From: an uncultured Bacilli bacterium
Lineage (GTDB): Bacteria > Bacillota_I > Bacilli_A > RF39 > UBA660
DNA: 64,000 nt
Direction of reading: 5' to 3'
Assembly (NCBI GenBank): GCA_910589335.1
Contig: CAJUTW010000001.1
Coordinates: 7,972-71,971 of the forward strand
Both the position numbers and the translations under genes were made by a program. The stretch's first letter is position 1. The number at the start of each line of letters is the position of its first letter. The notes under the pieces are model-generated. The model did no database searches. It saw only the letters and a list, made by a program, of their open reading frames with translations, and was not told the origin of the DNA. Below are positions 2,832 to 59,948 of this stretch, piece after piece.

Positions 2832-2854
2832 TAATTTAGCAGTGAGGTTTAGTT

Positions 2855-3421: not shown

Positions 3422-3434
3422 GAGGAGTTTAATT

Positions 3435-3749: not shown

Positions 3750-3784
3750 TATTTAGAATTATAATTTAGGAGTTAGATGAGTTT

Positions 3785-4360: not shown

Positions 4361-4415
4361 ATAACATTTTAATAAATTAAAATTTAGTATCATTGATAAT
4401 AAGTTGAGGTGTAAT

Positions 4416-4931
4416 ATGAAAAAAATATTTAAAATATTTGTAATTACTGTTGTAGCAATATTAATCATTTTATTTTTTGGATATTGTATTTTAAATTTAT
4501 TATGGAAAAAAGATTTTAATAGATTTGATTATGATAAAAGTAAAAAAGAGTTAATGGAATTTTTTAAAACAAATAAAAAAGAATTAGAGATTATTGCAGA
4601 GGAATTATATGAAAAGAAAACTTCAAAAAATAATCCTTATGAAAACATAAGATATGCTACATATAAAAATGATTCTGAATTTTCTTTCTTAAAAAAATCG
4701 GAATATATTCAATTTGATATTGATGCACAAGGGATGCTTGGTGGACAATATTATGGACTAATCTATATAAAAGATGATATATATAACAGTGATGATTTAT
4801 TTATATATGACGAAAATAAAGAAACTAGTAAGGGTAATAATATTTTTATTAGAGAAAAGATTGCTAATCATTGGTATTATTACTATGATGACTATGATGG
4901 AAAAGTAAATATAAAAGAGATAAAAAAATAG
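4416..4931 (+). CDS. Hypothetical membrane-anchored protein
   Basis: ATG 4416 after GAGGTG. N-terminal TM helix IFVITVVAILIILFFGYCILNLLW. Confidence 0.45.
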   Translation: MKKIFKIFVITVVAILIILFFGYCILNLLWKKDFNRFDYDKSKKELMEFFKTNKKELEIIAEELYEKKTSKNNPYENIRYATYKNDSEFSFLKKSEYIQFDIDAQGMLGGQYYGLIYIKDDIYNSDDLFIYDENKETSKGNNIFIREKIANHWYYYYDDYDGKVNIKEIKK

Positions 4932-4948
4932 TCATAAAGGAGTTTTAG

Positions 4949-5485
4949 ATGAAGTTTACTTTTAAAAAATATATAAGACAATTAATATTATATGATACAT
5001 TTATTACCTTATTTATAATCATTTTCTTTTTACTATTTCAAGATACAGTATTTATATTATTTGCTATATTAGTGATATTTATTTGTAATATAAATTTTTT
5101 TAGAATTATTTATAATATTAAAAAATTTCTAAAGGAACAACCAAATGATATAATTAGTAAGTTAGAAAAAGATTTAAGTAATAACTATCTAATATATGAT
5201 TCATGGTATTTAACAGATGAATATATGTTTTCTGTCGAAAGATTAGAAAAAATTAATTATAAAGATATTATGGTTGTAGAGGGAGGAATAACTCTTGTTT
5301 CAGGTAGAAATAATAATCTCGGATACAAACAAACTATATATCTAAAGAATGGAGAAAAGTATAAACTAAAAGCTCCTATAACAAGTTCAAATTCAGATAT
5401 ATTTACTGAATTTATAAAGGGAAAAAATAGTAGTACCTATTTTGGAATTATAGAAGATTATATGAAAATAAAGAAAGATATATAA
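4949..5485 (+). CDS. Hypothetical membrane protein
   Basis: RBS AGGAG. Two N-terminal TM helices. Confidence 0.45.
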   Translation: MKFTFKKYIRQLILYDTFITLFIIIFFLLFQDTVFILFAILVIFICNINFFRIIYNIKKFLKEQPNDIISKLEKDLSNNYLIYDSWYLTDEYMFSVERLEKINYKDIMVVEGGITLVSGRNNNLGYKQTIYLKNGEKYKLKAPITSSNSDIFTEFIKGKNSSTYFGIIEDYMKIKKDI

Positions 5486-5707
5486 ATTTGAAATAATATT
5501 TTGGGAGTGAGGCTATCGTTTGTGATATTCTTTTTCTTTTCATAAAAAAACAACTCTATACTAGCAGTTGTTAAAAAAAATATTATCTAAATGATTCATT
5601 TTTTGTTATAAGTTAAAAAATCTTTTCACTTATAAATATTCTTTAAGTATTTATTCGACAAACTTAGATAAGTTGTATTTCTTTCTATATCTTTTCTAAT
5701 TATGTAT

Positions 5708-5929
5708 TTAATTATTTGATTTAAATTCTACGACTTCATATAATTTATCAGATATTATATCAAGATTTTTAGGATAATCTTTGTCGTAATAATCAATTAA
5801 ATCTTTTAATAAATCGTTTATCTTTTTAGAAATTTCTTTAGTGTATGAGTAAGAAAAAATAATATTGAGACTATTTAATACATGAAACGTAATTAAAGTT
5901 GTTAAGTTTCTTTCGTATTTTTTTATCAT
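5708..5929 (-). CDS. Small hypothetical protein (73 aa)
   Basis: Isolated minus-strand ORF with an upstream GGAG RBS. Weak resemblance to Spo0E-like small helical proteins, not supported. Confidence 0.3.
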   Translation of the reverse strand: MIKKYERNLTTLITFHVLNSLNIIFSYSYTKEISKKINDLLKDLIDYYDKDYPKNLDIISDKLYEVVEFKSNN

Positions 5930-6078
5930 AAATTTTCTCCTTTCTTTAAAAAATTAATTTATTTTTAATGTTACTTAAAGTAATTGTTTTAACTTTTTTA
6001 ATAAATATTTTAAATTTTGCAATTTAATATTGTGTTATATCAAAAAATTAAGTTGTTTATTATAAAGTTTCTAAAGAA

Positions 6079-6561
6079 ATGTTTTATAAAATTAATAACT
6101 ATACTGATAAAGATAGATATAAAGAATTTCAACAAAAATTAGAAAGCGTCGAAATAAATTATATAGATTGTGATTTATATTCTCTTCCTAATTATTTAGG
6201 TGATAATACATATGATGCAATGAATTTTTCTAATATTTATGAATATTTAAATTATGGAAAGGATGTTTGTAGAGAAAATGCTTTAAAATTTTATAATTTT
6301 TTAATGCAACAAATATGTCCTAGACTTAATAAAGATGGAAAAATTATGATATCATATTGTTATGCTTTTAATCATGAAGTAGAAAGATATTTAAAAAGAG
6401 AAATGACTGAAGAAAATATAGAAAGTATATTATATCAAAAAGGAATTACTTTTGATACAAAATATTCTTTTGCAGGAAAATTTGATTGTTTATTAGATTG
6501 TCCAGCATTTAATAAAGAAGATGATATCATTTATAATGAAGAAGAGTATGAAAATAATTAA
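6079..6561 (+). CDS. Hypothetical protein
   Basis: ORF followed by a strong terminator at 6608-6638. Confidence 0.4.
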   Translation: MFYKINNYTDKDRYKEFQQKLESVEINYIDCDLYSLPNYLGDNTYDAMNFSNIYEYLNYGKDVCRENALKFYNFLMQQICPRLNKDGKIMISYCYAFNHEVERYLKREMTEENIESILYQKGITFDTKYSFAGKFDCLLDCPAFNKEDDIIYNEEEYENN

Positions 6562-9466: not shown

Positions 9467-10351
9467 GTGATAGAAGTAAAAGAAGATACTGATACTAGGT
9501 TAGATATTTTTTTAGCGAATAATTTAGGTGTATCACGTAGTAAAGTACAAAAGTTAGTTAAAGAGGGATTAGTTACTGTTAATTTAAAAGAAGTTAGTAG
9601 TTCATATCAGGTTAAATTAAATGATAAAATAGATATAAAAGATGATTTAAATTATGAGGCAAAAGTAGAAGCTGAAAATATTTTTCTAGATGTTATATTT
9701 GAAGATGATGATTTAATGATTATTAATAAAAAAAGTGGAATGGTTGTGCATCCTGCTCCAGGACATTATTCAAAAACTTTAGTTAATGCTTTATTATATC
9801 GAAATATAAGTTGTGGAGATAATTTAAGACCAGGTATAGTTCATCGTTTAGATAAAGATACAAGTGGATTAATGATTGTTGCTAAAAATGAAGAAATGCT
9901 TGAAAAATTATCTAAAATGATTAGTGAAAAAAAGGTAGAGAGAAAATACTTAGCGATTGTTGATGGTGTGATAAAACATGAAACAGGAGAAATTGATGCA
10001 CCAATTGGAAGAGATATATCTAATAGGCAAAAAATGGCTGTTTCAGATATTAATAGTAAAGAAGCTATTACACATTTTAAAGTGTTAGAGCGATTTAATA
10101 AAAATACTTTAATTGAATGTGTTTTAGATACAGGTAGAACACATCAAATTAGAGTACATCTTGCTTATATAGGATATCCAGTTTGTAATGATCCTGCTTA
10201 TGGAAGGGGAAAATCAACAGAATTTGGGCAAATGTTACATTCTTATTCTATAAAATTTGTTCATCCAAGAACTGGAGCAATACTTAATTATGAAGTAGAA
10301 GCACCAATAGAATTTAGAGAAAAATTAGAAGAATTAAGAAATAGTAATTAA
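9467..10351 (+). CDS. RluA-family 23S rRNA pseudouridine synthase (RluD-like)
   Basis: S4 domain at the N-terminus. Catalytic HRLDKDTSGLMIVAKN and RTHQIRVHL motifs. GTG start after AAGGAGGGG. Confidence 0.85.
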   Translation: MIEVKEDTDTRLDIFLANNLGVSRSKVQKLVKEGLVTVNLKEVSSSYQVKLNDKIDIKDDLNYEAKVEAENIFLDVIFEDDDLMIINKKSGMVVHPAPGHYSKTLVNALLYRNISCGDNLRPGIVHRLDKDTSGLMIVAKNEEMLEKLSKMISEKKVERKYLAIVDGVIKHETGEIDAPIGRDISNRQKMAVSDINSKEAITHFKVLERFNKNTLIECVLDTGRTHQIRVHLAYIGYPVCNDPAYGRGKSTEFGQMLHSYSIKFVHPRTGAILNYEVEAPIEFREKLEELRNSN

Positions 10352-21917: not shown

Positions 21918-22787
21918 ATGTCTTTAATTCAGATTTTAGATTGTAGTGAAGCACTTGGTACTTGTTGTAGTGATTATGGATTAGTTACAGTGTTAGATTC
22001 ATGTCGAAAAATACTTAATTTAATACAATTAGTTGCACCTATAATCTTAATTGTTTGGAGTTGTGTTGGATTAATAAGTTTAATAATTAATCCAGAAGAA
22101 AAAAAGTTAAAAAAGTCTTTAATAAATAAGTATTTAGCTGCGGTTTTATGTTTTTTTATTCCAGTTATTATTGATGCTATGTTAGGTTTAATGCCTGAAA
22201 CTTTTAGTGTTTCGGCTTGTTGGAAACAAGCGCAAGTTTCTGCTGAAATTGTTAGAAGTTTAAGAAATGAATATATAAGTGAAAAAGATAAAACTCAATC
22301 TCCTATTTTACTTAATCCTGATGAATATGAACCAGGAGATGAGAGAGAAGAACCTGTTGTTGGAAGTTCTAATTCGGTTAATGGTGGTTCTGGAGCGGGA
22401 AGTAAAAAAGGAAAAGAGATAGTAAAATACGCTAGAAGTTTTGTTGGACAAAGATATGTTTGGGGAGGATTTTGGAATGGTGAGTTGCCATATACTGGAA
22501 CAGATTGTAGTGGGTTTGTACAAGGTGTTTTTGCTCATCATGGTATAAGTTTAGGAAGAGATACTACTTCACAATGGGCAGATAAAAGTAAATTTACTAT
22601 TGTTGAGGGTGAAATTAAAGCAGGAGATTTAGTTATGTATAGTGAGCATGTTGGTATTTTAACAGGTAATGGTAATGAAATAATTCATGCTAAAGGAACA
22701 AATTATGGAATAGTTATTGATTCTGATTATAAAACGTGTTCTTCTAAAGCTATATTTGGAATTATGAGAATAAATGGAGTAAATTAG
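21918..22787 (+). CDS. NlpC/P60 cell-wall peptidase fused to an N-terminal Cys-flanked two-TM module
   Basis: NlpC/P60 catalytic Cys (TDCSGFV) and His (HVGIL). The N-terminal 110 aa are homologous to ORFs 42776 and 43188 (DC.G ... TM ... FFIP ... TM ... CW). Confidence 0.75.
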   Translation: MSLIQILDCSEALGTCCSDYGLVTVLDSCRKILNLIQLVAPIILIVWSCVGLISLIINPEEKKLKKSLINKYLAAVLCFFIPVIIDAMLGLMPETFSVSACWKQAQVSAEIVRSLRNEYISEKDKTQSPILLNPDEYEPGDEREEPVVGSSNSVNGGSGAGSKKGKEIVKYARSFVGQRYVWGGFWNGELPYTGTDCSGFVQGVFAHHGISLGRDTTSQWADKSKFTIVEGEIKAGDLVMYSEHVGILTGNGNEIIHAKGTNYGIVIDSDYKTCSSKAIFGIMRINGVN

Positions 22788-27353: not shown

Positions 27354-27411
27354 TTAGCATGTTGAATCTAGATATACCTAGAAAAAGCTAATTAAAACAG
27401 AGGTGATGAAA

Positions 27412-27882
27412 ATGGGAAGTAAGAATACAGTTTATTTAACACAGGAAGGGTTAGACGATTTAAAAAAGGAATTAGATAATTTAATAAACGTACGCCGCCC
27501 AGAAAATATACAAGCTATAAAAGAAGCAAGATCTTTAGGAGACTTATCTGAAAATGCAGAATATGATGCTGCTAGAAATGAACAAGCTCAAATAGAAGGT
27601 AGAATTCAACAATTAGAGAAGATGTTAGAAAATGTATCTATTATTACTGAAGTAACTACAGATAAAGTAGGAATAGGTAATACAGTTTCAATTAAATATG
27701 TTGATGATGATGAAGAAGATGAATATAAAATTGTTGGTAGTCAAGAAGCTGATCCATTTGAGAGTAAAATCTCTAATGAGAGTCCAATTGCTCAAGCATT
27801 ATTTGAACATAAAGTTGGAGATATTGTTACTGTTGAAAGTCCAAATGGAAACTACGATATAGAAATTATAGAAATAAGCTAA
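27412..27882 (+). CDS. greA: Transcription elongation factor GreA
   Basis: LTQEGLDDLKKEL ... GDLSENAEYDAA ... C-terminal FKBP-like domain. ATG 27412 after AGAGGTG. Confidence 0.9.
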   Translation: MGSKNTVYLTQEGLDDLKKELDNLINVRRPENIQAIKEARSLGDLSENAEYDAARNEQAQIEGRIQQLEKMLENVSIITEVTTDKVGIGNTVSIKYVDDDEEDEYKIVGSQEADPFESKISNESPIAQALFEHKVGDIVTVESPNGNYDIEIIEIS

Positions 27883-43715: not shown

Positions 43716-43734
43716 ATAAAAAGAGGTGAATTTT

Positions 43735-45891
43735 ATGGGAGATAGTAATTTAGAAGTTTCTAGTGTTACTAATGATATTATTAGAAATTTATTTTCTACA
43801 TTAGATAAACCTGCTTATTGGTTATTAGGCTTAGTTTACCAATTGTTTTTTAATGTTGCTTCTGCTGATTTGTTTAGTAATCAAACAGTAATGAATTTTT
43901 ATAAAAGAATCCAATTGATTATTGGAGTTTTTATGATGTTTCAACTAGCTGTTACTATAATTAGAGGAATAGTTAATCCTGATACTTTTACGGATTCGAA
44001 AAATGGTGCAACTAATTTAATTAAGAGAGTAGCAATTTCTTTAGTTTTAATGACTCTCTTAGTTCCTATAAATATTCCGGGTGCAAAAAACGAATGGGAA
44101 AGACAGCTTAATAATCATGGGTTTTTATTTGGTGGTCTTTATTCACTACAACATAGAGTACTTAGTAATAATACATTAGGTAGACTTATACTTGGAAATG
44201 ATGATTCGGCTGAATCGTTTACTGAAAGTGATTTTAATGATGATGATAGTAGTTTAGCAAAGTCTGCTAGAATTTTTACATCGACGATTCTAAAAGGATT
44301 TTATAGAATAAATTTAATTCCTTATGAAGATCGTGTTCATAAAAAAGGTAGAGATGACGCTACTATAAATGAAAATAGAGTATGTAAAAATATGGATGAT
44401 GCAATACTAAATTCTTATACAAGACTTGATGCAGATCCTGGAGATATCATTGCTTTAGTTACATATGATTGTGAATATGAAGCAGCTGAATCTAATGCGA
44501 TACAAAATGTTATTAGTTTAATTAATAAGAAATGGGCTGGTCAGATGCGATATGGATTTGCTTATATGCCTTTTATATCAGCAATTGTTGCATTTGTATT
44601 TGTATTTATTCTTCTTAATTTTACTGTTGAAGTTGCTGTTCGAGCTGTTAAATTGGCTGTATTAAGATTAATTGCTCCAATACCTATTATTTCATATATG
44701 GATCCTAAAGGAGGAAAAGATTCTGCTTTCGGTTCTTGGGTTAAAACTTTAACGACAACTTATTTAGATTTATTTATAAGATTAGCTACTGTATACTTTG
44801 TGTTATTCTTAATACAAGATATGATAGTTAATGGTATTTATATTAATCAAGGAGAAGGAATTTTAGGGGTACTGTCATTTATCTTAATTTTAATTGGTTT
44901 ATTTGTTTTTGCAAAACAAGCACCTAAGTTTATTAAACAAGTTTTAGGAATAAAAGATGAAGGTGGTAAGTTCTTAAGTGGAATTAGTGATTTAGCTGCT
45001 GCTACTTCTATTGCTGCTGGAACTGTTGGTTCTGCTCTTAATAGTTTTCGTGCTGCTAAAGAAGAAAATGATGCTTTACATGAAGGCAGTGTACTTAATG
45101 GATTTAGAAATTTTGGTTCTGCAATAGCAGGTGCTATTGGTGGTGGAGCAGCTGGTGCTAAAGCCTTTATGGGAAAAGATGCTTCTGCTCAAGCTGTTAG
45201 AGCAGCTATGGATCAAAGAAATGCTATGCGTGCAGCTCATTCAACTGCTACAGGTAGACTTGCAAGTAATGCATATGGTTTGCTTCGAGGTGAATCTTTA
45301 GCAGCTAGAGATCAAGCTATATTAGAAGCTAATAAGGCAGCATCTACATCAATTAAAGCATTTAAAACAACAGCTGTGGAAGAGGCTATGAAAAAAGGAA
45401 GTTACGGAAACGTATCAACTGCTAATGATAGGTTTGGAAGATTAACAGGAATTAACTTTAATTATCGTCAATTGGAAGCTGCGATTAATACAAAGGATAA
45501 TAGTGGTAATTTTGATTATACAGATTCTACTGGAACTGTACATCATTTGAATGCTGCATGGTTTGATTCTTCAGTTATGGCTGATATTGAAGATAGTCAA
45601 ACAGCTAATTATTTAAAAAGTGATTATGATGAACATACTGGTAAATTTGCAAATAATAAACTTAATACTGATTGGCGTAATGCTAAACATGATATGTCAG
45701 AAGCTAAAATAGATTATCGTGGAAATTATCTTGGAGATATTGGAGCTGGTTCAGGAGTTAATATTAATGGTGCAGATTATGCTTATAAAGATATTGGTAA
45801 GAGCATAGGTGTTGCCAATGAAAATGTTGCTAATATGAATACAGATATGAAACATATTATGAATCGTGCTAATAGTCAAAACAAAAAATAG
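43735..45891 (+). CDS. VirB6/TrbL-like polytopic T4SS channel protein (ConG/TcpH-like) with a long Ala/Gly-rich C-terminal extension
   Basis: Periplasmic N-domain followed by at least five TM helices (FISAIVAFVFVFILL, LAVLRLIAPIPII, LATVYFVLFLIQDMIV, ILGVLSFILILIGLFVF). Confidence 0.6.
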   Translation: MGDSNLEVSSVTNDIIRNLFSTLDKPAYWLLGLVYQLFFNVASADLFSNQTVMNFYKRIQLIIGVFMMFQLAVTIIRGIVNPDTFTDSKNGATNLIKRVAISLVLMTLLVPINIPGAKNEWERQLNNHGFLFGGLYSLQHRVLSNNTLGRLILGNDDSAESFTESDFNDDDSSLAKSARIFTSTILKGFYRINLIPYEDRVHKKGRDDATINENRVCKNMDDAILNSYTRLDADPGDIIALVTYDCEYEAAESNAIQNVISLINKKWAGQMRYGFAYMPFISAIVAFVFVFILLNFTVEVAVRAVKLAVLRLIAPIPIISYMDPKGGKDSAFGSWVKTLTTTYLDLFIRLATVYFVLFLIQDMIVNGIYINQGEGILGVLSFILILIGLFVFAKQAPKFIKQVLGIKDEGGKFLSGISDLAAATSIAAGTVGSALNSFRAAKEENDALHEGSVLNGFRNFGSAIAGAIGGGAAGAKAFMGKDASAQAVRAAMDQRNAMRAAHSTATGRLASNAYGLLRGESLAARDQAILEANKAASTSIKAFKTTAVEEAMKKGSYGNVSTANDRFGRLTGINFNYRQLEAAINTKDNSGNFDYTDSTGTVHHLNAAWFDSSVMADIEDSQTANYLKSDYDEHTGKFANNKLNTDWRNAKHDMSEAKIDYRGNYLGDIGAGSGVNINGADYAYKDIGKSIGVANENVANMNTDMKHIMNRANSQNKK

Positions 45892-45914: not shown

Positions 45915-46226
45915 GTGAATTATTTAATTCCTGCTAATACGAAGAAGGGGCAATTAATATTAGGTTTATTTAGACCTTTTGATTTGGGATTGTTTGCAGG
46001 AGGAGTGTTGGTAACTGTAATATTACTAGCATTTCTTCCTTTAAATAATACGGCTGTTACTATTTTAATACTTAGTCCAGCTTTTATTACTGGTTTTTTA
46101 GTTATGCCAGTTCCTTATTATCATAATATGTTAAATATTATAGTCGAGATGTATGAGTTTTTTACGAATCGTCAGACTTATAGATGGAAAGGTTGGTGTT
46201 ATAAAAGTGTCCAAAAAAGGAAATAG
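45915..46226 (+). CDS. VirB3-like/PrgI-family small membrane protein
   Basis: 103 aa with two TM helices, immediately upstream of and overlapping VirB4. GTG start. Confidence 0.5.
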   Translation: MNYLIPANTKKGQLILGLFRPFDLGLFAGGVLVTVILLAFLPLNNTAVTILILSPAFITGFLVMPVPYYHNMLNIIVEMYEFFTNRQTYRWKGWCYKSVQKRK

Positions 46227-46758
46227 TAGTGGTTTTACTGAGGATTGGTTACCAGTTAGAGCCATTCAAAATAATATGATTATTACTCGTGATAATTTTA
46301 AAGTTAGTGGAGTAAAAATTTCTCCGCGAAATATATTTATTTTGGATCCGCAAATGCAAAATAATATGTTAGTTGCACTTAGAAATTTTTATAATACAAT
46401 TGATTATGAGTTTTGGTTAGTAGTTGCTGATAGACCAGTTGATATATCTGTATATATGTCACAGATGCAATTACTACTAAATGATACACAATCTCCTGCT
46501 GTTAGAAAGCTAATTATGCAAGATATACAAAAAGGGGAAACTTTTATTACTAATAATGTTGTTGATACTGAATATTATTTTATGTTTAAGTCAAAAGATC
46601 AAGATTTACTTATGAAGAGAGTTCGTCAAATGATTAATGGACTTGCAACGTGTGGATTGAATGCTTCACTTATTAGTAATTCAGATTTAAGATTAGTACT
46701 TGAAAACTTCCTAAATGGAGGTACTACTACAGAGTTTGGAACGGTGATGCCAGTATGA
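46153..46758 (+). CDS. virB4: VirB4-like ATPase, N-terminal segment (separate frame; true start uncertain, perhaps GTG 46207)
   Basis: Gram-positive VirB4 N-domain pattern (EDWLPVRAIQNNMIITRDNFKVSGVKISPRNIFIL...). Ends in an ATGA overlap with the next ORF. Confidence 0.6.
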   Translation: MSFLRIVRLIDGKVGVIKVSKKGNSSGFTEDWLPVRAIQNNMIITRDNFKVSGVKISPRNIFILDPQMQNNMLVALRNFYNTIDYEFWLVVADRPVDISVYMSQMQLLLNDTQSPAVRKLIMQDIQKGETFITNNVVDTEYYFMFKSKDQDLLMKRVRQMINGLATCGLNASLISNSDLRLVLENFLNGGTTTEFGTVMPV

Positions 46759-48545
46759 GTATAGGTTTAAGAAGTCAATTAGCTCCTAAGGGGTTACATT
46801 TTAATTCAAGTGATTTTATCATAAGTGATAAATATGCAACAATTTTAACAGTTGTTTCTTATCCAAAATATATTATGCCAGGATATTTATCTTCTTTAAC
46901 TAATATGTCAGGAATTAAGGTTGTTGTTAAACATATACCTGTTCCTTTTCAAGAAATGGCTAAAATGTTAAATAAACAAGTTGCTGATTTAAAAGAAAAA
47001 TATCAAACTGAAAGAGATCAAACTGTTCGTGAAAGAATTAGACAGGATGCAGAAAGTTTAGAATATTTTACTTCTATGCTTGCTGGTAGTCAGGCTCGTA
47101 TTTTTGATTTTCAAATGCATATTATGATTACAGCTGATACAAAAGAAGAACTTGAATTAAAGAAACTTAATGTTAGAAATTATTTAGATTCAATGGAGTT
47201 AAAAGCTATAGCTTTACGTTTTGAACAAGAAAAAGTATTAAAATCTATCTTACCTATTTTTCCTGCACAAGATGTTGAACAGAGAATTGGAACACCGATT
47301 CCTTCTGTAACTATTTCAGCAATGTACCCTTTTATTTTTGATAGTATAAAAGATCCAGGACTTTCAACTTTACTTGGAGTTGACTTTTCTGGAGGAGTTA
47401 TTTTATTTAATCAATTTTTATATAAAATACGTAAAGAAAATAATAGAAATAATGCTAATATGATTATTTTAGGTACATCGGGATCTGGAAAATCTACAGC
47501 AGCTAAATTAATGCTTAGAACTCATATTAGAAATGGATGTCAAATTGTAATAATTGATCCTGAAGATGAATTTAGAGAACTTACTCGTACATTTGGTGGA
47601 GATACAGTTGATATTGGAAAGGGTGGAGAATTTGGTTTAATTAATCCACTTGAAATTGTTATTGATGCTGATGAAGAAGAAATAAAACAAGGATTAGGTT
47701 ATACAGTTTTAACTAGAACTTTACAATTTTTAAAAGCATTTATGAAGTATTATGATCCTTCTATAGAAGAAGATGTATTAACAATGTTTTCTGAAATTGT
47801 ACAAGATACTTATAAAAGATTTGGAATAGATTTTAATGCTGATTTTTCAAGATATACATCAGCTGATTATCCTACTTTTAGTGATGTTTATGCAACTATA
47901 AAAGGTAGGCTTATGTCAATGACTGATCAAACACAAGAACGTGATATTATGGAAAGACTTGAATTAAAAGTTAGACCAATTGTTAAAGAATTGAAATTCT
48001 ATTTTGATGGTCATACAACAATTAGAAAAGATAGCGATTTCATGGTTTTTAATATAAAAGAATTAATGAACAGTGACTCAACTGTTAAAAATGCTTTATT
48101 CTTTAATGTATTAAAATATGCTTGGGGTCTTTGTTTAGATTTTAATGTTGATACAGTTTTAATGGTAGATGAGGCGCATGTTTTACTTGGAGATAATAAT
48201 GCATTAGGAGCTGATTTCTTGGCTCAAGTTCAACGTCGTGCTCGTAAGTATAATACAGGTACAATAATTATTACTCAACAACCTAGTGATTTTTCTAATC
48301 AAGCTGTTATAACACAAGGAAAAGCTATTTTTGATAATTCATCATATTATCTTGTTATGGGGCTTAAAAAACAAGCTGTTGAAGATTTATCTTTATTAAT
48401 AGATTTAAATGAAAGTGAAAAAGAAAGTATTAAACGTTATTCTCAAGGAGAGGCTTTATTCGTTTGTGGAAATAGGCGTATGAGAATTAATATTGCAGTT
48501 ACTCAAGAAGAGTTAGACTCTTTTGGAGTAGGTGGAGGTTTTTAG
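46755..48545 (+). CDS. virB4: VirB4-like T4SS ATPase, C-terminal segment (ConE/TcpF/PrgJ-type)
   Basis: Walker A GTSGSGKST, Walker B LMVDEAHVLL, IIITQQPSD motif. Confidence 0.85.
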   Translation: MSIGLRSQLAPKGLHFNSSDFIISDKYATILTVVSYPKYIMPGYLSSLTNMSGIKVVVKHIPVPFQEMAKMLNKQVADLKEKYQTERDQTVRERIRQDAESLEYFTSMLAGSQARIFDFQMHIMITADTKEELELKKLNVRNYLDSMELKAIALRFEQEKVLKSILPIFPAQDVEQRIGTPIPSVTISAMYPFIFDSIKDPGLSTLLGVDFSGGVILFNQFLYKIRKENNRNNANMIILGTSGSGKSTAAKLMLRTHIRNGCQIVIIDPEDEFRELTRTFGGDTVDIGKGGEFGLINPLEIVIDADEEEIKQGLGYTVLTRTLQFLKAFMKYYDPSIEEDVLTMFSEIVQDTYKRFGIDFNADFSRYTSADYPTFSDVYATIKGRLMSMTDQTQERDIMERLELKVRPIVKELKFYFDGHTTIRKDSDFMVFNIKELMNSDSTVKNALFFNVLKYAWGLCLDFNVDTVLMVDEAHVLLGDNNALGADFLAQVQRRARKYNTGTIIITQQPSDFSNQAVITQGKAIFDNSSYYLVMGLKKQAVEDLSLLIDLNESEKESIKRYSQGEALFVCGNRRMRINIAVTQEELDSFGVGGGF

Positions 48546-48574: not shown

Positions 48575-50914
48575 GTGCCATATCAAAGTCGAAGACAAAC
48601 AAGAAAAAAAGAACAACCTGAAAATGGTGTTGAACCTGAGGTATTAAACACATCAGATGTTGATCCTGCATCACAAAAAAAGCAGGAGCGTCAAGAAGCG
48701 ACTAAAAATGCATTAAAAACTGGTCTTAAAGGAGCAGGAGCTTATGTAGGTGGACCTCTTGGTGCTTATGCTGCAGATAAGTTAGCAAATTCTAAGACTG
48801 GACAAAAAGCACTTAATAAAGGTGCACAGACTCTAAATAAGATACCTGGTATCGGAAGAATTACTAATCGAGTTAATAAAACTGGTGCAATTGATGCCAC
48901 TGATAAAGGAATAGATTTATTTTCTAAATTTGGTGGAAAGAATAAAATTTCTAATAAAAATGTAGAAGTAGGAGGACAAGAGAGTAGTCTTCCTTCTTCT
49001 AGTTCAACAGGTAGCGAAGATGATAGTTCTAGTAAGCAAATAGCAGGGCTTCCTACTAAGTCTAAGATGCCATCTTTTTTAGGGGATAAAGATAAAAATA
49101 AGGATAGTGAAGCAAAAGGTACTGCGAAAGTTAATATACAAATTTTTAAAACAGTAATCTTTGTTTTTGGTCCAATAATTGTAATAATTTTATTATTTTA
49201 TATGGTAATTGCAGGAGTTGCTGGTTTATTTTCTGATTATGAGGATGCTTTTGGAATTAGTCAAACAGTAGGGGAAGAAACAGGAGATGTATATTTTCAA
49301 GCATCTAGTGAAGAACAACAGAAATTTTTTGATAGAGTAAATAATGTAAAACTAGAGTATCAAGCTAATGGAAAAATTGTTGATCCATTAAAAATTGTTG
49401 CTGTTTATCATGTTTTATCACTTAATGGAGCAAATTTAAAATATGAAACTATGGATGATGCAGTTATTAGAAAGATTGCTGATGCAATGTTATTTGATGG
49501 AACTTCTTATAGTGAAGATACTTTTAAAGAAAATTTAATTGCTTATATAATTCCAGAGTATTTACCTAATACTTTAGCAGGAGAGAGAGAACAACTTGCC
49601 GATGATATTTTGGATTATGTTTCTAGATATTACAATTTAATTGGAAAAGAAGAAAATTCAAGTGTTTGTGCATCGATTGGTAGTTGTGTTTATGATATTA
49701 AAGGTTTTGCTTTATCTAATAATGGAAATGTTGCTAAGGCAATGCAAATTAAAGATTTAAAGGTGCGTCTTATGGAATGTGGTGGTGGTTATGGTAGTGG
49801 AAGCTATAATACACCAATAGATCAGGATTTAGTTAATTTTGAAGATTATGTAGCAGGAGTTGCTTATGCTGAAGTTGGTCCTGATGCTCATGTTGAAGCT
49901 TTAAAAGCTCAAATGGTTGCAGCAAGAAGTTATGCTTTAGCTCGTCCTACTGCAATGGGAAATGCTTTAGGAAAAAAATTGGAACAAGAGAATGGGGAGT
50001 GGATTTTACAGATTTCTTCTTGTGTTGCTGATCAAGTATTTTGTAATATTAATGAAGGTTGCTCTTATATGGGAGGAGGAGATGGTCAAGGGGGAGTTGT
50101 TAGAAGTGGAATAGTGCCAGGTGCTATAAGAACTAGACCACCTCTTCCAGAAGGACATCCTCTTAGAACAGTTGCTGCTGAGACTCAAGGTGAAGTTTTG
50201 GTTAATCAACAAGGTTATGTTATATCGACAGGATTTTTAGCAACGGAACAAAGAATATTTATGGCTTTGGCTAGTCAAGGTTTAAATTATAAACAAATTT
50301 TATTGCAAGTTTACAATCAAGGTAATCGTAATTATGGAGCTTTTGATATAGCAAAAGGTAGTTGTAATAACGGAAGTTCATCTAATTGTCAATCTGATAA
50401 TAATAATAATAATAATTATGCAAATTGGAAGCAATATGTAGGTCCTTGGATTAATACTCCAATAGGTACTAGTGGTAATACTATAAAAGGTATAGGATGT
50501 TTAGTTACTTCTGTTTCAATGTTAATTGCTAAAAGTGGAGTTCCTACTGTAATAAATAATTTTAATCCAGGTACTTTTGTTGAGTTTTTAAACAATAATG
50601 GTGGATTTTCTGGAGGAAACTTTAATTGGCCTGCTGCTACAGTTGCTGCTCCAACATTTAAATATCAACGCGGTATAGATGTATTAGGATGGTCTAAAAA
50701 GGATAAACTTAATAAAATAAAAGAAATTGTTAACCAACCTGGATTATATGCAGTTGCAGAAGTTAAGGGAGATACTGGTCAACATTGGGTAGCAATTGAT
50801 TCTGTTACTGGAGATACTATTAAAATGATGGATCCTGGAAGTTCTTCATCTGATATGTGGAGTGAATATAATTGGAACAATACTTCTAGAATAGTTTATT
50901 ATAAAGTTGGATAG
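48575..50914 (+). CDS. T4SS-associated multidomain cell-wall hydrolase (VirB1 functional analog): membrane anchor, SpoIID/LytB-like domain, C-terminal papain-like cysteine peptidase (C39_2/CHAP-like)
   Basis: SpoIID motif DYVAGVAYAEVGPDAHVEALKAQMVAARSYAL. Cys-His pair GIGCLVTSVSM ... GQHWVAIDS. TM at about residues 185-210. Confidence 0.65.
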   Translation: MPYQSRRQTRKKEQPENGVEPEVLNTSDVDPASQKKQERQEATKNALKTGLKGAGAYVGGPLGAYAADKLANSKTGQKALNKGAQTLNKIPGIGRITNRVNKTGAIDATDKGIDLFSKFGGKNKISNKNVEVGGQESSLPSSSSTGSEDDSSSKQIAGLPTKSKMPSFLGDKDKNKDSEAKGTAKVNIQIFKTVIFVFGPIIVIILLFYMVIAGVAGLFSDYEDAFGISQTVGEETGDVYFQASSEEQQKFFDRVNNVKLEYQANGKIVDPLKIVAVYHVLSLNGANLKYETMDDAVIRKIADAMLFDGTSYSEDTFKENLIAYIIPEYLPNTLAGEREQLADDILDYVSRYYNLIGKEENSSVCASIGSCVYDIKGFALSNNGNVAKAMQIKDLKVRLMECGGGYGSGSYNTPIDQDLVNFEDYVAGVAYAEVGPDAHVEALKAQMVAARSYALARPTAMGNALGKKLEQENGEWILQISSCVADQVFCNINEGCSYMGGGDGQGGVVRSGIVPGAIRTRPPLPEGHPLRTVAAETQGEVLVNQQGYVISTGFLATEQRIFMALASQGLNYKQILLQVYNQGNRNYGAFDIAKGSCNNGSSSNCQSDNNNNNNYANWKQYVGPWINTPIGTSGNTIKGIGCLVTSVSMLIAKSGVPTVINNFNPGTFVEFLNNNGGFSGGNFNWPAATVAAPTFKYQRGIDVLGWSKKDKLNKIKEIVNQPGLYAVAEVKGDTGQHWVAIDSVTGDTIKMMDPGSSSSDMWSEYNWNNTSRIVYYKVG

Positions 50915-51767: not shown

Positions 51768-54119
51768 ATGAAATTGAAATTTAGAGCAGATCCTGAGGAT
51801 TTATTAATATTTGGAATATTTGCGATTTTCTTACTTTACGTGGTTGCTATTGGAGTTGTAAATTTACATACATTTGCGTCTGAAGGACATTTAGCAGGAC
51901 TTAATCCTTTACCTGCATTTGGACCTGATTATTTATTTTCAACAATCTTTTTATATTTATTATTTTTACTTGGAATTTTTGCTAGTGTAAGTTCTATGTT
52001 TTTTGAAAGTGAAAAAGGTTTTGGTATTACAACTGATAAAAAAGATAAAGGTTATTCAAGATGGGCAAAAGAGAAAGAAATTAAAGAAGAACTAGAAATG
52101 GTTGGAGTTAAACAAGCTGATTCTAAAGTATCAGGAGTTCCTTTAATTTTAAATGAAGAAGAGATGTGGGTTGATAATAGTGAATATCACTCTTTAGTAA
52201 TAGGAGCTACTGGTTCTGGTAAAACTCAAACAGTTATTTTGCCACTTGTTCATAGTTTAGCAAAAGCTAAAGAGTCAATGATTATTACCGATCCTAAAGG
52301 TGAAATTTATGAAAAGACTAGTAATATGCTTAGAGCTAGAGGATATCAAATTCTACTTTTAAATTTCCGTGATCCACAAAATGGTAACGCATGGAATCCT
52401 ATGACTTTGCCGTATGAAATGTATAAGGCTGGTAATCAAGATAAATCAATTGAGTTACTTGATGATTTGGCTTTAAATATTTTATATGATGCTTCTAATA
52501 AAAATGCAGATCCTTTTTGGGAGAAAACATCAGCAGATTATTTTTCAGGAGTTGCTCTTGGATTATTTGAAGATGCTAAACCAGAAGAGATAAATATTAA
52601 TAGTATTTCTTTAGCAACAACAGTTGGAGAAGAAAAATTTGGTGGATCAACATATATTAAAGAATATTTTGGAGCAAAAGATCCTAATAGTCCTGCTTCT
52701 ATTAATGCATCAAGTACAATTATGGCACCAACTGAGACTAAAGGAAGTATTTTATCTGTATTTAAGCAAAAAGTTAAGTTATTTGCATCTCGAGAGAATT
52801 TATCTGAAATGTTATCTCACAGTGATATAGATTTAGAAAGTATTGGTGAGAAACCTACAGCTGTATTTATTGTTATTCAAGATGAGAAAAAAACATATCA
52901 CTCCTTAGTAACTATCTTACTAAAACAAATTTATGAAACTTTAATTAGTGTTGCGCAAAAACACGGTGGAAAATTACCAATAAGAACTAATTTCTTGCTT
53001 GATGAGTTTGCTAATATGCCACCTCTAAAAGATGTTACAACAATGATTACTGCTGCACGTTCTAGAAAAATTAGATTTACAATGATTATTCAAAACTTTG
53101 CTCAACTTGATTCTGTATATGGTAAGGAAGATGCTGAAACTATTCGCGGTAACTGTGGTAATATTATTTATTTAATTACTACTGAGCTTAAAGCCTTAGA
53201 AGAAATATCTAAAATGTGTGGAGAGGTTAAATCTAAAAAAGATGATAAAACGGCTTCTACTCCATTAGTTACAGTATCTGATTTACAAAGAATGAAGCAG
53301 TTTGAAGTAATAATTTTACGTATGCGTAAACAGCCATTTAAAACTAAGTTTACTCCATATTTTAAACTTAATTGGGGTAAAACTTATCCTGAAGCTAGTT
53401 ATCCTTCAAGAGAGAAAGAAGTTGTTAAAACTTTTGATATTAAAGAATATGTAAAAGCGCAAAAGAAGAAAAAATTATTAGAGATGATGAATTCAGCAGA
53501 TGATAAAGATAAAGAACTTGGCAATATGCCAGGTATGCCTGGAATTCCAGGAATGCCTAACTTTCCTGGATTACCAGGAATGCCACCATTTCCTAAGACT
53601 AATCCAATGGTTGAAAAATTACCTCCTGAATTACAAGAAGCAAGAGAAAAAAGAAATATGGGTCCAAATATTCCAGATTTTTTAACTAGAAAAAATTCTG
53701 ATAATCAAGAATCTAACAATTTACCTAATATTCCAGATTTTGAAACATTTAAAAAACAAATGGAAGCTTCTGATAATACTTTTAATCCTTTTGCTCCTTC
53801 TAAAACATCAGCACCATCTTTAAATAAAAGTGATGATGATTTAGGATTTGATGTTGATGAACTTGTTAAGAAAATAGATGCAAAAATAGCAGAATTAGAA
53901 GAGGAAGAAAAAAGACAAAAAGAAGCTGAAGGAAAAGTTAATAATCAAATATCTTCAAAACCTCTTGAAGATAAGAAGTCTGATAGTATTTTATATAAAA
54001 ATGAAGATAAGAATATCAAAAATGAAGAAAATAATAAAGTTCAAACTAAACCAAGTAATTTAAGCTTAGAAGATGATAGTGATGAAGATGATTTCTTTGA
54101 TGATTTCTTTGATAGTTAG
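51768..54119 (+). CDS. virD4: VirD4/TraG-family type IV coupling protein with a Pro-rich repeat and an acidic C-terminal tail
   Basis: Two N-terminal TM helices. Walker A GATGSGKTQT, Walker B FLLDEFANM, RSRKIRFTMIIQNFAQL. Tail has GMPGIPGMPNFPGLPGMPPFP and EDDSDEDDFFDDFFDS. Confidence 0.8.
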   Translation: MKLKFRADPEDLLIFGIFAIFLLYVVAIGVVNLHTFASEGHLAGLNPLPAFGPDYLFSTIFLYLLFLLGIFASVSSMFFESEKGFGITTDKKDKGYSRWAKEKEIKEELEMVGVKQADSKVSGVPLILNEEEMWVDNSEYHSLVIGATGSGKTQTVILPLVHSLAKAKESMIITDPKGEIYEKTSNMLRARGYQILLLNFRDPQNGNAWNPMTLPYEMYKAGNQDKSIELLDDLALNILYDASNKNADPFWEKTSADYFSGVALGLFEDAKPEEININSISLATTVGEEKFGGSTYIKEYFGAKDPNSPASINASSTIMAPTETKGSILSVFKQKVKLFASRENLSEMLSHSDIDLESIGEKPTAVFIVIQDEKKTYHSLVTILLKQIYETLISVAQKHGGKLPIRTNFLLDEFANMPPLKDVTTMITAARSRKIRFTMIIQNFAQLDSVYGKEDAETIRGNCGNIIYLITTELKALEEISKMCGEVKSKKDDKTASTPLVTVSDLQRMKQFEVIILRMRKQPFKTKFTPYFKLNWGKTYPEASYPSREKEVVKTFDIKEYVKAQKKKKLLEMMNSADDKDKELGNMPGMPGIPGMPNFPGLPGMPPFPKTNPMVEKLPPELQEAREKRNMGPNIPDFLTRKNSDNQESNNLPNIPDFETFKKQMEASDNTFNPFAPSKTSAPSLNKSDDDLGFDVDELVKKIDAKIAELEEEEKRQKEAEGKVNNQISSKPLEDKKSDSILYKNEDKNIKNEENNKVQTKPSNLSLEDDSDEDDFFDDFFDS

Positions 54120-55405: not shown

Positions 55406-55687
55406 ATGAATATTGATATTAATAGTATTCTTAAAATGAATTCTTCAAATATAATAGATATTAGAGATAGAAATAGTTATGTAATGGGACATATTCCACA
55501 AGCTATAAATATTGAAGAGTATGATTTATTATTTAATACAAATAAATACTTAAATAAAAATTCTATTTATTATATATATTGTGATTTAGGAAATAGAAGT
55601 GGTCAATTAGCAATGAAACTTAGAAAAGATGGTTATAATGTTATCAATATAGAAGGTGGTTATCATAATTACTTGTTAAGAAAATAG
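55406..55687 (+). CDS. Rhodanese-domain protein
   Basis: Active-site loop YIYCDLGNRSG. Confidence 0.65.
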   Translation: MNIDINSILKMNSSNIIDIRDRNSYVMGHIPQAINIEEYDLLFNTNKYLNKNSIYYIYCDLGNRSGQLAMKLRKDGYNVINIEGGYHNYLLRK

Positions 55688-55721
55688 ATTTATAATATAA
55701 TAGTTATGAAGGTGATAATAA

Positions 55722-56300
55722 TTGGAAATAATTAATTATATTATTGATTATAGTACTAAATTTATAGCTACTGGTGGAATACCTTTTGGATTTTTGTTAG
55801 TTTTTATAGAATGTTTTATTCCAGCATTACCATTAAGTATTTTTGTTGCTTTAAATGTTAATGCATTTGGAGTGTTTATTGGAACTCTAATTTCATGGAT
55901 TGCTACTTGTTTAGGAAGTTTCTTATGTTATTTATTATTTTCTTTTTTAGAAGAGAAATTTATTAGTAAATGGTTTAATAATAAAACTAAAAAACTTATT
56001 ACAAAAGGAACATTAAAATTTAAAACAATTGGTTTTTCTGAATTAGTATTAATAATAACATTACCTTTTACTCCATCTTTTTTAGTTAATATTTTATCAG
56101 GGATAGCTGGAGTATCAAAAGAAAAATTTATTTCAGCTTTATTAATAGGTAAAGTATTTACAATAATTTTTTGGGGGTATATTGGAAAAAGTTTTATTGA
56201 AAGTATTACAGATATAAGTTCTATTTTTTATATAATTATAGCTTTAATAATTTCATATATTTTATCTAAAATTGTTAGTCGAAAAATGAATATTGAATAA
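55722..56300 (+). CDS. DedA/TVP38-family membrane protein
   Basis: Polytopic membrane protein with a DedA-like pattern. TTG start. Confidence 0.5.
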   Translation: MEIINYIIDYSTKFIATGGIPFGFLLVFIECFIPALPLSIFVALNVNAFGVFIGTLISWIATCLGSFLCYLLFSFLEEKFISKWFNNKTKKLITKGTLKFKTIGFSELVLIITLPFTPSFLVNILSGIAGVSKEKFISALLIGKVFTIIFWGYIGKSFIESITDISSIFYIIIALIISYILSKIVSRKMNIE

Positions 56301-56315
56301 AAAGGAGAAAATTAT

Positions 56316-57383
56316 ATGGATTATGTTATTATTTTATTGCTTATTGTTTTAATTATTTTAGTAGTTATTTCATTATTTAAAAATATAAATGAATCAAATA
56401 TTACAGAAAGACTTGGTAAGCTTGAACTAGAAGTTATGCGTGAGATTGGAAACTTTAAATCTGATTTAAGTAGAAATATGAATGAAGATTTTTCTAAATT
56501 TAATGAAAGTGTTGAAAAGAGACTTCTTATGATTAATGAGAAAGTTAATGAAAGACTTGATCAAAATTTTGAAAAAACTAATAAAACTTTTATGAATGTT
56601 ATAGAAAGACTTTCAAAAATTGATGAGGCACAGAAAAAGATTGAAACTTTGTCAGGAGATATTGTTAGTTTACAAAGTATTTTAACAGATAAGAAGACAA
56701 GAGGAATATTTGGAGAAGTTAATTTAAAACATATTTTAACAAGTGTTTTTGGTGAAAAGAATGATAAAATCTATAAAATTCAATATACTTTATCTACTGG
56801 TGTAATTGCAGATAGTGTTTTATTTGCTCCTGAACCATTAGGAACTATTTGTATTGATTCAAAATTTCCACTTGAAAATTATCAATTAATGGTTGATAGA
56901 AAATTGTCAGAAGAAACGCGAAAAAGTTATTTAAAAAATTTTAGAATTGATATGAAAAAACATATTGATGCTATTAGTAATAAATATATAATTCCGGGAG
57001 AAACTACAGATCAAGCTATATTATTTTTACCTGCAGAAGCTATTTTTGCTGAACTTAATGCTTATCACTCTGATATTATAAATTATGCTTATAAAAAAAG
57101 AGTATGGATTACTAGTCCAACCACGCTTATATCTACTTTAACAGTAATTGAGATGATTATAAAAAATTTAGAAAGAGATAAATATAGTTCAATTATACAT
57201 GAAGAGCTAAACAAACTAGGTCTTGAATTTGCAAGATATAAAGAACGTTGGGATAAATTAGCAAGAAGTATTCAAACAGTTAATAAAGATGTTGAAAATG
57301 TATCTATAACTGCAGATAAGATTTCTAAGAAATTTCAAACTATTAATAAAGTTGAACTTATAGAAAATGATGAAAGAACTTAA
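56316..57383 (+). CDS. rmuC: DNA recombination protein RmuC
   Basis: N-terminal TM, long coiled coil, C-terminal RmuC nuclease-like region. Confidence 0.65.
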   Translation: MDYVIILLLIVLIILVVISLFKNINESNITERLGKLELEVMREIGNFKSDLSRNMNEDFSKFNESVEKRLLMINEKVNERLDQNFEKTNKTFMNVIERLSKIDEAQKKIETLSGDIVSLQSILTDKKTRGIFGEVNLKHILTSVFGEKNDKIYKIQYTLSTGVIADSVLFAPEPLGTICIDSKFPLENYQLMVDRKLSEETRKSYLKNFRIDMKKHIDAISNKYIIPGETTDQAILFLPAEAIFAELNAYHSDIINYAYKKRVWITSPTTLISTLTVIEMIIKNLERDKYSSIIHEELNKLGLEFARYKERWDKLARSIQTVNKDVENVSITADKISKKFQTINKVELIENDERT

Positions 57384-59060: not shown

Positions 59061-59948
59061 ATGGATTTATTTGAAAATAGGGATTTTAGTCCTATGTTGT
59101 TGTCAGAAGAAAAAGATGCTTTTGATTCAAAAGAGTTTATATTTGAATTAAAATTTGATGGAACTAGGGCTTTAATTTTTGTGTCTCAAAAGAACTTAGT
59201 TATTATGAATAGACATGGAAAGAATATTACATATTTATATCCTGAATTACAAGAGATAAAAAATTATATAAAAGAAAAAGTTATATTTGATGGAGAAATA
59301 GTTGTTTTTAAAGAAGGAAAACCTTCTTTTTTGAAATTGCAGGAGAGAGCACATTTAAAAAATAAATTAAAGATTAATTATCAAAGTAAAAATAATCCAG
59401 TAATATTTGTTTGTTTTGATATTTTATATAAAAATAAAAATCTTATAAATAACACATTATTAGAAAGAAAAAAAATATTATCTAAGTTCATAGATAATGA
59501 TTATTTTTTAAAGAATAAGTATATTGAAAATGATGGAAAATTATTATTTAAAAATATTAAAAAATTAGGTCTTGAAGGTATTGTTGCTAAAAGAAAAAAT
59601 AGTAAATATCAAATTAATAAAAGAACTGATGATTGGATTAAAATAAAAAATTTATTAAAAGAGTCTTTTTATGTTGGTGGATATATAGAAACAAAAAAAA
59701 GTATATCTTTGCTTTTAGGAGAGATGAAAAATAATAAACTATTTTATGTTGGTAGAGTAGTAATATCAACTAAAGAATCTTTATATAAAAGTATTAAAAG
59801 TAGTAAGATAATTAATAAGACAAATTTTGAGAAAGATATTGTGGGAGCTAATTATATAATTCCTAAATTTAAATGTTTTGTGGAATATATGGAAAGAACT
59901 AAAACTAATCATTTAAGACAACCTGTTTTTAGAGGAGAAGATAAGTGA
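59061..59948 (+). CDS. ligD: ATP-dependent DNA ligase (LigD ligase domain only)
   Basis: Adenylation motif I ELKFDGTRAL. 295 aa, with no polymerase or phosphoesterase domain. Confidence 0.75.
   Translation: MDLFENRDFSPMLLSEEKDAFDSKEFIFELKFDGTRALIFVSQKNLVIMNRHGKNITYLYPELQEIKNYIKEKVIFDGEIVVFKEGKPSFLKLQERAHLKNKLKINYQSKNNPVIFVCFDILYKNKNLINNTLLERKKILSKFIDNDYFLKNKYIENDGKLLFKNIKKLGLEGIVAKRKNSKYQINKRTDDWIKIKNLLKESFYVGGYIETKKSISLLLGEMKNNKLFYVGRVVISTKESLYKSIKSSKIINKTNFEKDIVGANYIIPKFKCFVEYMERTKTNHLRQPVFRGEDK

Follow-up and report, generated by a model that had tools for sequence, protein, structure and literature searches.

In plasmid R388's type IV secretion system (T4SS), a Gram-negative MPF-T system whose TrwK/VirB4 and TrwM/VirB3 are known from cryo-electron microscopy (7O41-7O43, 8RTB, 8RTD), VirB4 is a single polypeptide of 823 amino acids (aa), and VirB3 wraps round its N-terminal domain (PMC9259494). 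The curated families that score best for the proteins described here are single polypeptides as well, i.e. NF045975 (Mbov_0397, from integrative and conjugative elements (ICEs) of Mollicutes, 894 positions) and NF045971 (CD1110, from Clostridioides elements, 752 positions). In contrast, the VirB4 encoded at 45915-48545 of the window, as we call the whole 64-kb stretch of DNA analysed here, comes in two pieces, an N-terminal one (N-piece) and one that holds the ATPase domain (ATPase piece), and is preceded by a gene for a small VirB3-like membrane protein. The ATPase piece is of the same superfamily as the R388 protein, while structural alignment of the N-piece with it gives an identity of 7-11%.

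A comparable order of genes is present on known Gram-positive plasmids. In pCP13 of Clostridium perfringens, the order pcpB6, pcpI (93 aa, DUF5592), pcpJ (214 aa), topA and pcpB4 (632 aa; cf. PMC8941779) matches that of the window, with a VirB6-like gene, a small two-helix membrane protein, a PF26593 protein of ~214 aa and a short VirB4 ATPase. The Bacillus thuringiensis plasmids pBMB67/pCT72 encode TrbL, PrgI (111 aa), a ‘hypothetical’ protein of 227 aa and a DUF87 ATPase of 630 aa. A set of 104, 222 and 645 aa proteins is found in pBT9727, which we used as the representative of the pAW63/pXO2 type, and coding sequences (CDS) 11, 10 and 9 of pAW63 itself specify 105, 223 and 645 aa, CDS 10 being labelled ‘ATPase involved in DNA repair’ and not part of a VirB4 (PMC1196294). 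The modules of pAW63/pBT9727/pXO2 and of pBMB67/pCT72 all place a PrgI/DUF5592 protein of 104-111 aa beside a TrbL/pLS20_p028 VirB6-like gene and VirD4, and the VirB3-like gene of the window has a corresponding setting. In PMC9673590, pAW63 and pBT9727 both appear as plasmids whose transfer is backed by experiment, and conjugation has been shown experimentally for the pCP13 family, where pcpB4 was described as crucial (PMC8941779). The same layout thus occurs in plasmids reported to conjugate, so that a split VirB4 is compatible with a working machine and nothing out of the ordinary among machines of this class. A discussion of split VirB4 architecture was not found in the literature searched. 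The split VirB4 of RF39-like gut Bacilli joins an architecture that is already in the databases and in known conjugative plasmids, where it is poorly annotated.

For the split in the window, the initial annotation had offered four explanations side by side: that the gene is genuinely split and its parts are coupled in translation, that a frameshift is programmed, that the sequence contains an error, or that a mutation has inactivated the gene. Only the genuine split has held up. With a probability of roughly 0.9, VirB4 is here a naturally fissioned gene, made up of two genes that are presumably coupled in translation, and neither an error nor a broken gene; the fission was probably a single, old event. 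The features at issue are:

45915-46226, + strand: VirB3-like (PrgI/TcpE-type) small membrane protein, 103 aa, GTG start, TAG stop
46186-46198, + strand: GGAAAGGTTGGTG, Shine-Dalgarno (SD)-like stretch, 8 nucleotides (nt) upstream of the conserved N-piece start
46207-46758, + strand: predicted VirB4 N-piece (PF26593, ‘TraC-like’), 183 aa from the conserved GTG, TGA stop
46743-46748, + strand: GGTGAT, SD-like motif 6 nt upstream of the ATPase-piece ATG, within the last N-piece codons
46755-46758, + strand: ATGA, start codon of the ATPase piece overlapping the stop codon of the N-piece (seen in the sequence)
46755-48545, + strand: predicted VirB4 C-terminal/ATPase piece, 596 aa, ATG start
47472-47498, + strand: Walker A motif GTSGSGKST, ATPase-piece residues 240-248 (from the translation and the 4AG5 alignment; coordinates computed from the start of the open reading frame (ORF))

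The two pieces and the position of the break

The three ORFs and their assignment to VirB3-like and VirB4 genes, as given in the initial annotation, were borne out by the ORF list and by family matches, and the ATGA overlap and the Walker A motif of the C-terminal ORF are where they had been described. The ORFs had been said to occupy three frames. The start coordinates 45915 and 46755 can each be divided by 3, which places the VirB3-like ORF and the ATPase ORF in a single frame; only two frames are in use, with the N-piece alone shifted (+1). Taken together, the N-piece and the ATPase piece amount to 779-797 aa, in agreement with the VirB4 of ~790 aa proposed earlier. Both fall on NF045975, the N-piece at positions 81-276 (VirB4_plasma, E 6e-17) and the ATPase piece at 295-891 of 894 (Mbov_0397 ICE VirB4 family, E 8e-108). 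This makes them collinear with a single VirB4, ~18 positions of the model being left uncovered between them. Their scores of 61 and 361 bits against an equivalog cut-off of 590 indicate a related family rather than a member of this one.

The ATPase piece further matches the CD1110 VirB4-like family (NF045971, E 2e-52), the NCBIfam models TraC and VirB4_CagE, TIGR00929, and Pfam P-loop_TraG, AAA_10 and DUF87. Its residues 202-595 align to the VirB4 C-terminal domain in PDB 4AG5 (E 3e-54), and the crystallised construct of T. pseudethanolicus VirB4 begins at the equivalent of residue ~202. Residues ~202-595 are the RecA-like ATPase domain, and the part ahead of it, residues 1-~200, still belongs to VirB4's N-terminal domain, as its second half. 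In the fused metagenomic relative P0196 (839 aa), N-piece residues 11-170 align to 31-185 and ATPase-piece residues 2-587 to 229-835; considered over P0196 and a second fused relative, P0210 (800 aa), the two pieces cover ~15-185 and ~226-835, and the break sits in a poorly conserved linker. The break thus lies within the VirB4 N-terminal domain, ~200 residues upstream of the crystallised ATPase domain and ~240 before Walker A. The initial description, ‘split before its ATPase domain’, was imprecise, as the split is not at the edge of that domain.

The N-piece itself was modelled with AlphaFold2 at a predicted local distance difference test score (pLDDT) of 78, and in a Foldseek search of the PDB the top 14 matches of this model were all R388 TrwK/VirB4 chains. 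Its assignment to PF26593 was taken from precomputed annotations of P0001, which is identical to the window ORF, and of all listed homologues; a Pfam scan of the N-piece with models other than PF26593 gave no match. The window therefore contains a RecA-like P-loop ATPase domain with Walker A and a VirB4-type N-terminal domain, shared between two ORFs of 183 and 596 aa where a VirB4 would be one polypeptide of ~750-900 aa. The same operon-like array holds TrbL_4, VirB3-like, SpoIID, T4SS-DNA_transf (VirD4), T4SS_pilin and T2SSE genes. On these grounds, the ATPase piece and the N-piece together are predicted to be a VirB4/TraC-type T4SS motor ATPase.

The product of 45915-46226 is a probable, though not a proven, VirB3 analogue. 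The sequence contains two hydrophobic helices; YLIPANTK on the N-terminal side and RWKGWCYK towards the C-terminus are conserved, and a variable Lys-rich tail follows the latter. Its orthologues gave sub-threshold Pfam matches to TcpE (5/12) and PrgI (1/12), and hhalign against the annotated PrgI-family protein of pBMB67 returned a probability of 63% (E 6.8e-5). The gene also stands at the same place as the PrgI/DUF5592 genes of pBMB67, pBT9727 and pCP13, and the homology of the small two-helix protein across split-VirB4 systems is weak.

Occurrence of the split arrangement

Relatives of the locus were collected in a scan of one genome per species, which yielded 43 loci with N-piece identities of 60-95%; counts over 44 sequences refer to these relatives and the window. 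All 43 come from metagenome-assembled genomes of the RF39 type, from uncultured gut Bacilli or ‘Mollicutes’; ‘Mycoplasma sp. CAG:877’ is among them. The comparison of orthologues for split or fused arrangements that the initial annotation had proposed gave one answer, with the N-piece and ATPase piece as separate ORFs of the same kind in 43/43. An intact VirB3-like ORF precedes the split VirB4 in 42 of them. The exception is RUG13941 (L039), where only the first ~43 VirB3-like residues were found (3887-4001), in a different frame and with no overlap with the N-piece; the VirB3-like gene of this genome may be disrupted or rearranged. VirB3-VirB4 fusions, which the initial annotation correctly noted for other systems, do not apply here: VirB3-like is separate in the window, and its stop (TAG, 46224-46226) is kept as TAG or TAA in the relatives.

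The junction between the N-piece and the ATPase piece, which in the window reads ...GTG ATG CCA GT[ATGA]GT, is ATGA in 39/43 relatives and TAATG in three (L044-46), while in the remaining one (L048) the overlap is 10 nt long and the frames are related differently. ATGA overlaps are common in operons and the pattern alone is unremarkable; the information at this junction comes from its conservation, not from the overlap as such.

Beyond these close relatives, searches with the N-piece and with a profile of distant members had thousands of matches. The 120 matches listed in each search were all stand-alone proteins of 182-213 aa with PF26593. In an exhaustive search of representatives, the stand-alone homologues recovered are 179-235 aa long and reach as low as 24% identity, and fused VirB4s of 800-839 aa were present in the same search. 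Two further candidates for fused forms were inspected: P0121 (276 aa) was rejected because it runs on into unrelated sequence, and P0144, at 35% identity, proved to be a fragment from a relative that is truly fused.

The ATPases of the plasmids begin where that of the window begins. Residues 23-624 of PcpB4 align to ATPase-piece residues 13-586 at ~26% identity, and residues 30-618 of the pBT9727 ATPase to residues 13-568, so that both proteins start at the same homologous position as the ATPase piece. For pBMB67, the N-piece was matched by the window N-piece in tblastn (23% identity, E 1e-8), and residues 13-630 of its C-piece align to 215-800 of the fused P0210. A profile built from PcpJ and the 222-aa protein of pBT9727 retrieved PF26593 proteins in 120/120 matches listed; one of these shares 99% identity with PcpJ, and others, of 215-228 aa, are from the B. 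cereus group. The window thus shows what the split architecture consists of elsewhere, namely a stand-alone PF26593 protein, an ATPase with a matching start, and a preceding two-helix protein and VirB6-like gene.

The systems also differ. In pBMB67 and pCT72 the first junction is TAATG and the second junction has its own GAGGGAG SD, whereas the window has ATGA. More generally, the B. cereus-group modules have short gaps or a TAATG overlap and canonical GGAGG-type SDs, and they are plasmid-borne with relaxases, unlike the window. Likewise, pCP13 is plasmid-borne with a MobP2 relaxase and an NlpC/P60 hydrolase, in place of which the window has SpoIID. In pCP13 (L053, 7028-9139), a topoisomerase gene lies exactly between pcpJ and pcpB4, which makes a read-through product impossible there.

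Junctions, rival explanations and a model

The longest possible ORF for the N-piece is 46153-46758, with an ATG start and 201 aa, and this is the basis of the overlap of up to 74 nt with the VirB3-like gene that the initial annotation had reported. As an upper bound this figure stands. At least 25 of the 43 relatives, however, have an in-frame stop between the equivalent of ATG 46153 and the conserved start, so that ATG 46153 is not the real start; the stretch that follows it encodes the conserved VirB3-like C-terminal motif (…NRQTYRWKGWCYK) in the other frame. The sole start codon to be conserved, as ATG, GTG or TTG, is the one that corresponds to GTG 46207; it gives N-pieces of 183 aa in the window and 181-193 aa in the relatives and a real overlap of 20 nt (11-44 nt in the relatives). 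Many database gene calls use the 183-aa form. Callers that choose the upstream ATG (46153-46206; 200-201 aa) leave the VirB3-like gene uncalled, e.g. in L054/L055 at 9736-10001, and public annotations of the N-piece family are therefore often without VirB3. The stretch GGAAAGGTTGGTG lies within the VirB3-like coding sequence, where it encodes WKGWC, and is conserved in the relatives that keep the overlap; it may serve as the ribosome-binding site of the N-piece.

At the second junction, the ATG of the ATPase piece and the GGTGAT 6 nt upstream of it are invariant in 44/44 sequences. GGTGAT is complementary to AUCACC near the 3' end of 16S rRNA. In 43/44 sequences the codons that make it up are ACG and GTG (ATG GTG in L046), although ACG makes up 3.5-6% of the Thr codons and GTG 3-4% of the Val codons in these genes. 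The retention of such rare codons points to the nucleotides as the object of selection, in line with a ribosome-binding site inside the coding sequence, and the ATPase piece would accordingly be initiated independently at 46755. The stop codon at this junction is one that the window all but avoids as a terminator. On the + strand of the window, 30 of the 58 ORFs end in TAA, 26 in TAG and two in TGA, the latter at 46756-46758, i.e. at the ATGA junction of the split VirB4, and at 59946-59948. Genetic code 4 (TGA as Trp), suggested by the match to a Mycoplasma ICE family of NCBIfam and by the Mollicutes labels, was considered and rejected: the gene bodies of the window contain no in-frame TGA, and ORFs under table 11 cover 85% of the + strand. 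Reading TGA as Trp would in any case extend the N-piece by 2-4 codons and leave the split as it is.

A sequencing or assembly error would mean that indels at ~46150-46230 and 46750-46760 have broken a single VirB3-VirB4 or VirB4 gene. The 1-nt change of frame at each junction is the pattern expected of an indel, and a run of A6 lies near the first. Yet the exact 201-aa protein is recorded in 35 blocks of the assembly collection, and the six contigs shown, of 24 from different samples and assemblers, have an identical junction and 596-aa ORF (one cut by the contig end); an identical 201+596 pair in so many independent assemblies rules out an assembly error. Moreover, the 43 other species are split alike with three junction forms, start codons stand exactly at the junctions, and the halves in pCP13 have another gene between them, which leaves this explanation with virtually no credence. 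An inactivating mutation, by which VirB4 would be a two-fragment pseudogene in a decaying T4SS, could fit a degenerating element in so far as the locus looks chromosomal and the window gave no match to a relaxase or an integrase. Against it stand the pairwise ratios of nonsynonymous to synonymous substitution (dN/dS; Nei-Gojobori, 41 comparisons with the window), which are 0.04-0.22 for the N-piece and, for the ATPase piece, 0.04-0.24 in the first 200 codons and 0.02-0.17 in the remainder; with dS at 0.5-2.7, synonymous sites are largely saturated. Neither piece has a further stop or frameshift in any of the 43 genomes, the neighbouring T4SS genes are all intact, and plasmids for which conjugation is reported have this architecture too (PMC9673590, PMC8941779). 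Instead of relaxed selection and sporadic disruption, we found the same split position in 43 genomes and in distant plasmids, and the universal split combined with low dN/dS in both pieces rules out a pseudogene; we regard decay as hardly conceivable.

Programmed -1 frameshifting, or transcriptional slippage, near 46700-46758 would produce a functional full-length VirB4 of ~780 aa. The ATPase frame is indeed -1 relative to the N-piece in 42/43 relatives, and the 55 nt ahead of the stop can be read in both frames in the window. Among the 44 sequences, however, this permissive stretch ranges from 4 to 82 nt, with 4 nt in L042 and 14 nt in L048, the sequence with the different frame relation, and canonical X_XXY_YYZ slippery heptamers occur in only 4/44 sequences, the window not among them, and at places that are not homologous. 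The invariant ATG and SD-like motif, which a frameshift would not need, the 4-nt permissive stretch and the scarcity of heptamers argue that no conserved frameshift exists. In addition, the genes of pBMB67 and pBT9727 do not overlap and each has its own strong SD, and topA intervenes in pCP13; the chance of programmed frameshifting is accordingly very slim. The remaining alternative concerns the first junction, where a +1 ribosomal shift or a 1-nt deletion in the transcript, in the A-rich overlap of 20 nt (46207-46226), might yield a minor VirB3-like::VirB4-N fusion beside the separate proteins and so mimic covalent VirB3-VirB4 fusions elsewhere. A-runs of 6-8 nt are present in this overlap, or its equivalents in L007-L049, in 28 of the 43 sequences scored (42 relatives and the window), removal of one A in the window would join ...YKSVQK to GNSSGFTEDW, and a covalent VirB3-VirB4 association is known from R6K (as cited in PMC3548315). 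The run in the window is only A6, though, and Lys-rich tails in a genome of 24% GC probably explain the A-runs. The frame of the VirB3-like gene relative to the N-piece is +1 in most relatives and -1 in L041 and L044-46, and this variation argues against an obligatory fusion. Since pBT9727 and pCP13 have intergenic gaps at this place and no fused VirB3-like::N protein is among the homologues listed, even a minor fusion product appears improbable.

We thus favour a natural fission of VirB4 into two coupled genes, for which the following model can be proposed. The first ~180 residues of the VirB4 N-terminal domain would be made as a separate protein of ~21 kDa (46207-46758), and the rest, the second half of this domain and the ATPase domain, as a protein of ~68 kDa (46755-48545). 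The virB3-like, virB4-N and virB4-C genes are presumably transcribed together. Coupled initiation by termination-reinitiation is suggested by downstream starts that lie in or next to the end of the upstream gene, with an SD-like motif ahead of each, buried in the coding sequence of the upstream gene. The two VirB4 pieces would then reassemble non-covalently into a VirB4-like subunit, the detached N-piece folding against the half of the N-terminal domain that remains on the ATPase piece. The N-piece may also supply the contact with the VirB3-like protein, a proposal based on R388, where VirB3 is wrapped round the VirB4 N-terminal domain. Tight gene order and coupled starts would hold the three proteins in matched amounts.

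Several observations weigh against this picture. Co-transcription, coupling and assembly are all steps that we infer from sequence. The structural match between the N-piece and TrwK is modest, with a template modelling (TM) score of 0.39-0.49 and E-values of 6e-4 to 3e-2. The link of the ~215-aa proteins PcpJ and that of pBT9727 to the N-piece rests on precomputed PF26593 assignments; direct BLASTP of PcpJ and the 222-aa protein of pBT9727 against the window N-piece found no similarity (E 5.6 for the 222-aa protein), and hhalign of the latter against the N-piece family gave a probability of 25%. Both SD-like motifs overlap conserved protein motifs, FGTVM and WKGWC, and their conservation may be partly at the protein level; the rare-codon argument covers the SD of the ATPase piece alone, not GGAAAGGTTGGTG. 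Finally, a TGA stop, as at the ATGA junction, is unusual for the window.

A broader reading, which we consider doubtful when taken as a whole, would have the fission at the linker happen only once, in the distant past, and mark out a large Gram-positive clade of T4SSs, comprising those of RF39-like gut Bacilli and the pCP13, pAW63/pXO2-like and pBMB67-like systems, in which the first N-terminal subdomain has become a free adaptor subunit that possibly contacts VirB3. If this were true, regulation could act on the stoichiometry of the N-piece or on the timing of its assembly on the ATPase hexamer; inner VirB4s might, for example, each carry one N-piece and outer ones none, or slippage in the A-rich overlap might occasionally produce a VirB3::N fusion.

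For the interpretation of such loci it matters that the gene arrangement gives no sign of a broken secretion machine, and that pipelines which expect a VirB4 of ~800 aa, or start the N-piece at the upstream ATG, mis-describe the locus. In conjugative plasmids, the N-piece is labelled ‘hypothetical’ or ‘DNA repair ATPase’, as for pCP13 (PcpJ), pAW63 (CDS 10) and pBMB67. Seen as the detached first subdomain of VirB4, it provides a conserved unknown gene of Gram-positive conjugation loci with a testable role, and offers a natural system in which VirB3 and the ATPase ring can be studied as docking partners of the VirB4 N-terminal domain. Otherwise, this is an ordinary gene fission with translational coupling.

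The surrounding locus

The genes that flank the split VirB4 are in keeping with a T4SS:

43726-45891, + strand: VirB6/TrbL-like polytopic membrane protein, 721 aa, directly upstream (Pfam TrbL_4, E 2.5e-8)
48575-50914, + strand: candidate SpoIID-domain cell-wall hydrolase and VirB1 analogue, 779 aa (Pfam SpoIID, E 1e-10)
51768-54119, + strand: VirD4-type coupling protein, 783 aa (Pfam T4SS-DNA_transf, E 7e-57; TraG-D_C; TrwB_AAD_bind)

The VirB6-like protein also has weak NCBIfam matches to the pLS20_p028 and Mbov_0396 families of conjugation membrane proteins. All T4SS genes form one co-directional array from ~27.9 to 55.3 kb (27900-55350). It opens with a surface Ig-like protein, a sortase, an unknown of 950 aa, DUF5411, a CpaB/RcpC-like protein and a T2SSE (VirB11-like) ATPase, continues with several unknowns, two T4SS_pilin proteins, the VirB6-like and VirB3-like genes and the split VirB4, and ends with SpoIID, an unknown of 262 aa, VirD4 and DUF6273. 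The array lies between GreA and rhodanese/DedA/RmuC (flanks 27403-27882 and 55406-57383), with housekeeping genes around. No relaxase or integrase was recognised by Pfam or NCBIfam anywhere in the window. A different species with 87% N-piece identity (L054/L055, 1-20603) agrees with the window in gene order and in the downstream flank. The T4SS locus may be chromosomal and vertically maintained rather than a recent ICE.

Two further observations concern other parts of the window. Amid housekeeping genes ~6 kb upstream of the T4SS cluster, 21918-22787 encodes an NlpC/P60 hydrolase whose N-terminal segment resembles a T4SS pilin (Pfam T4SS_pilin, E 1.7e-4). At 469-6561, a run of small ORFs without family matches lies beside an AAA_25/KaiC-like ATPase on the opposite strand (1480-2463) and may be the remnant of another mobile element.

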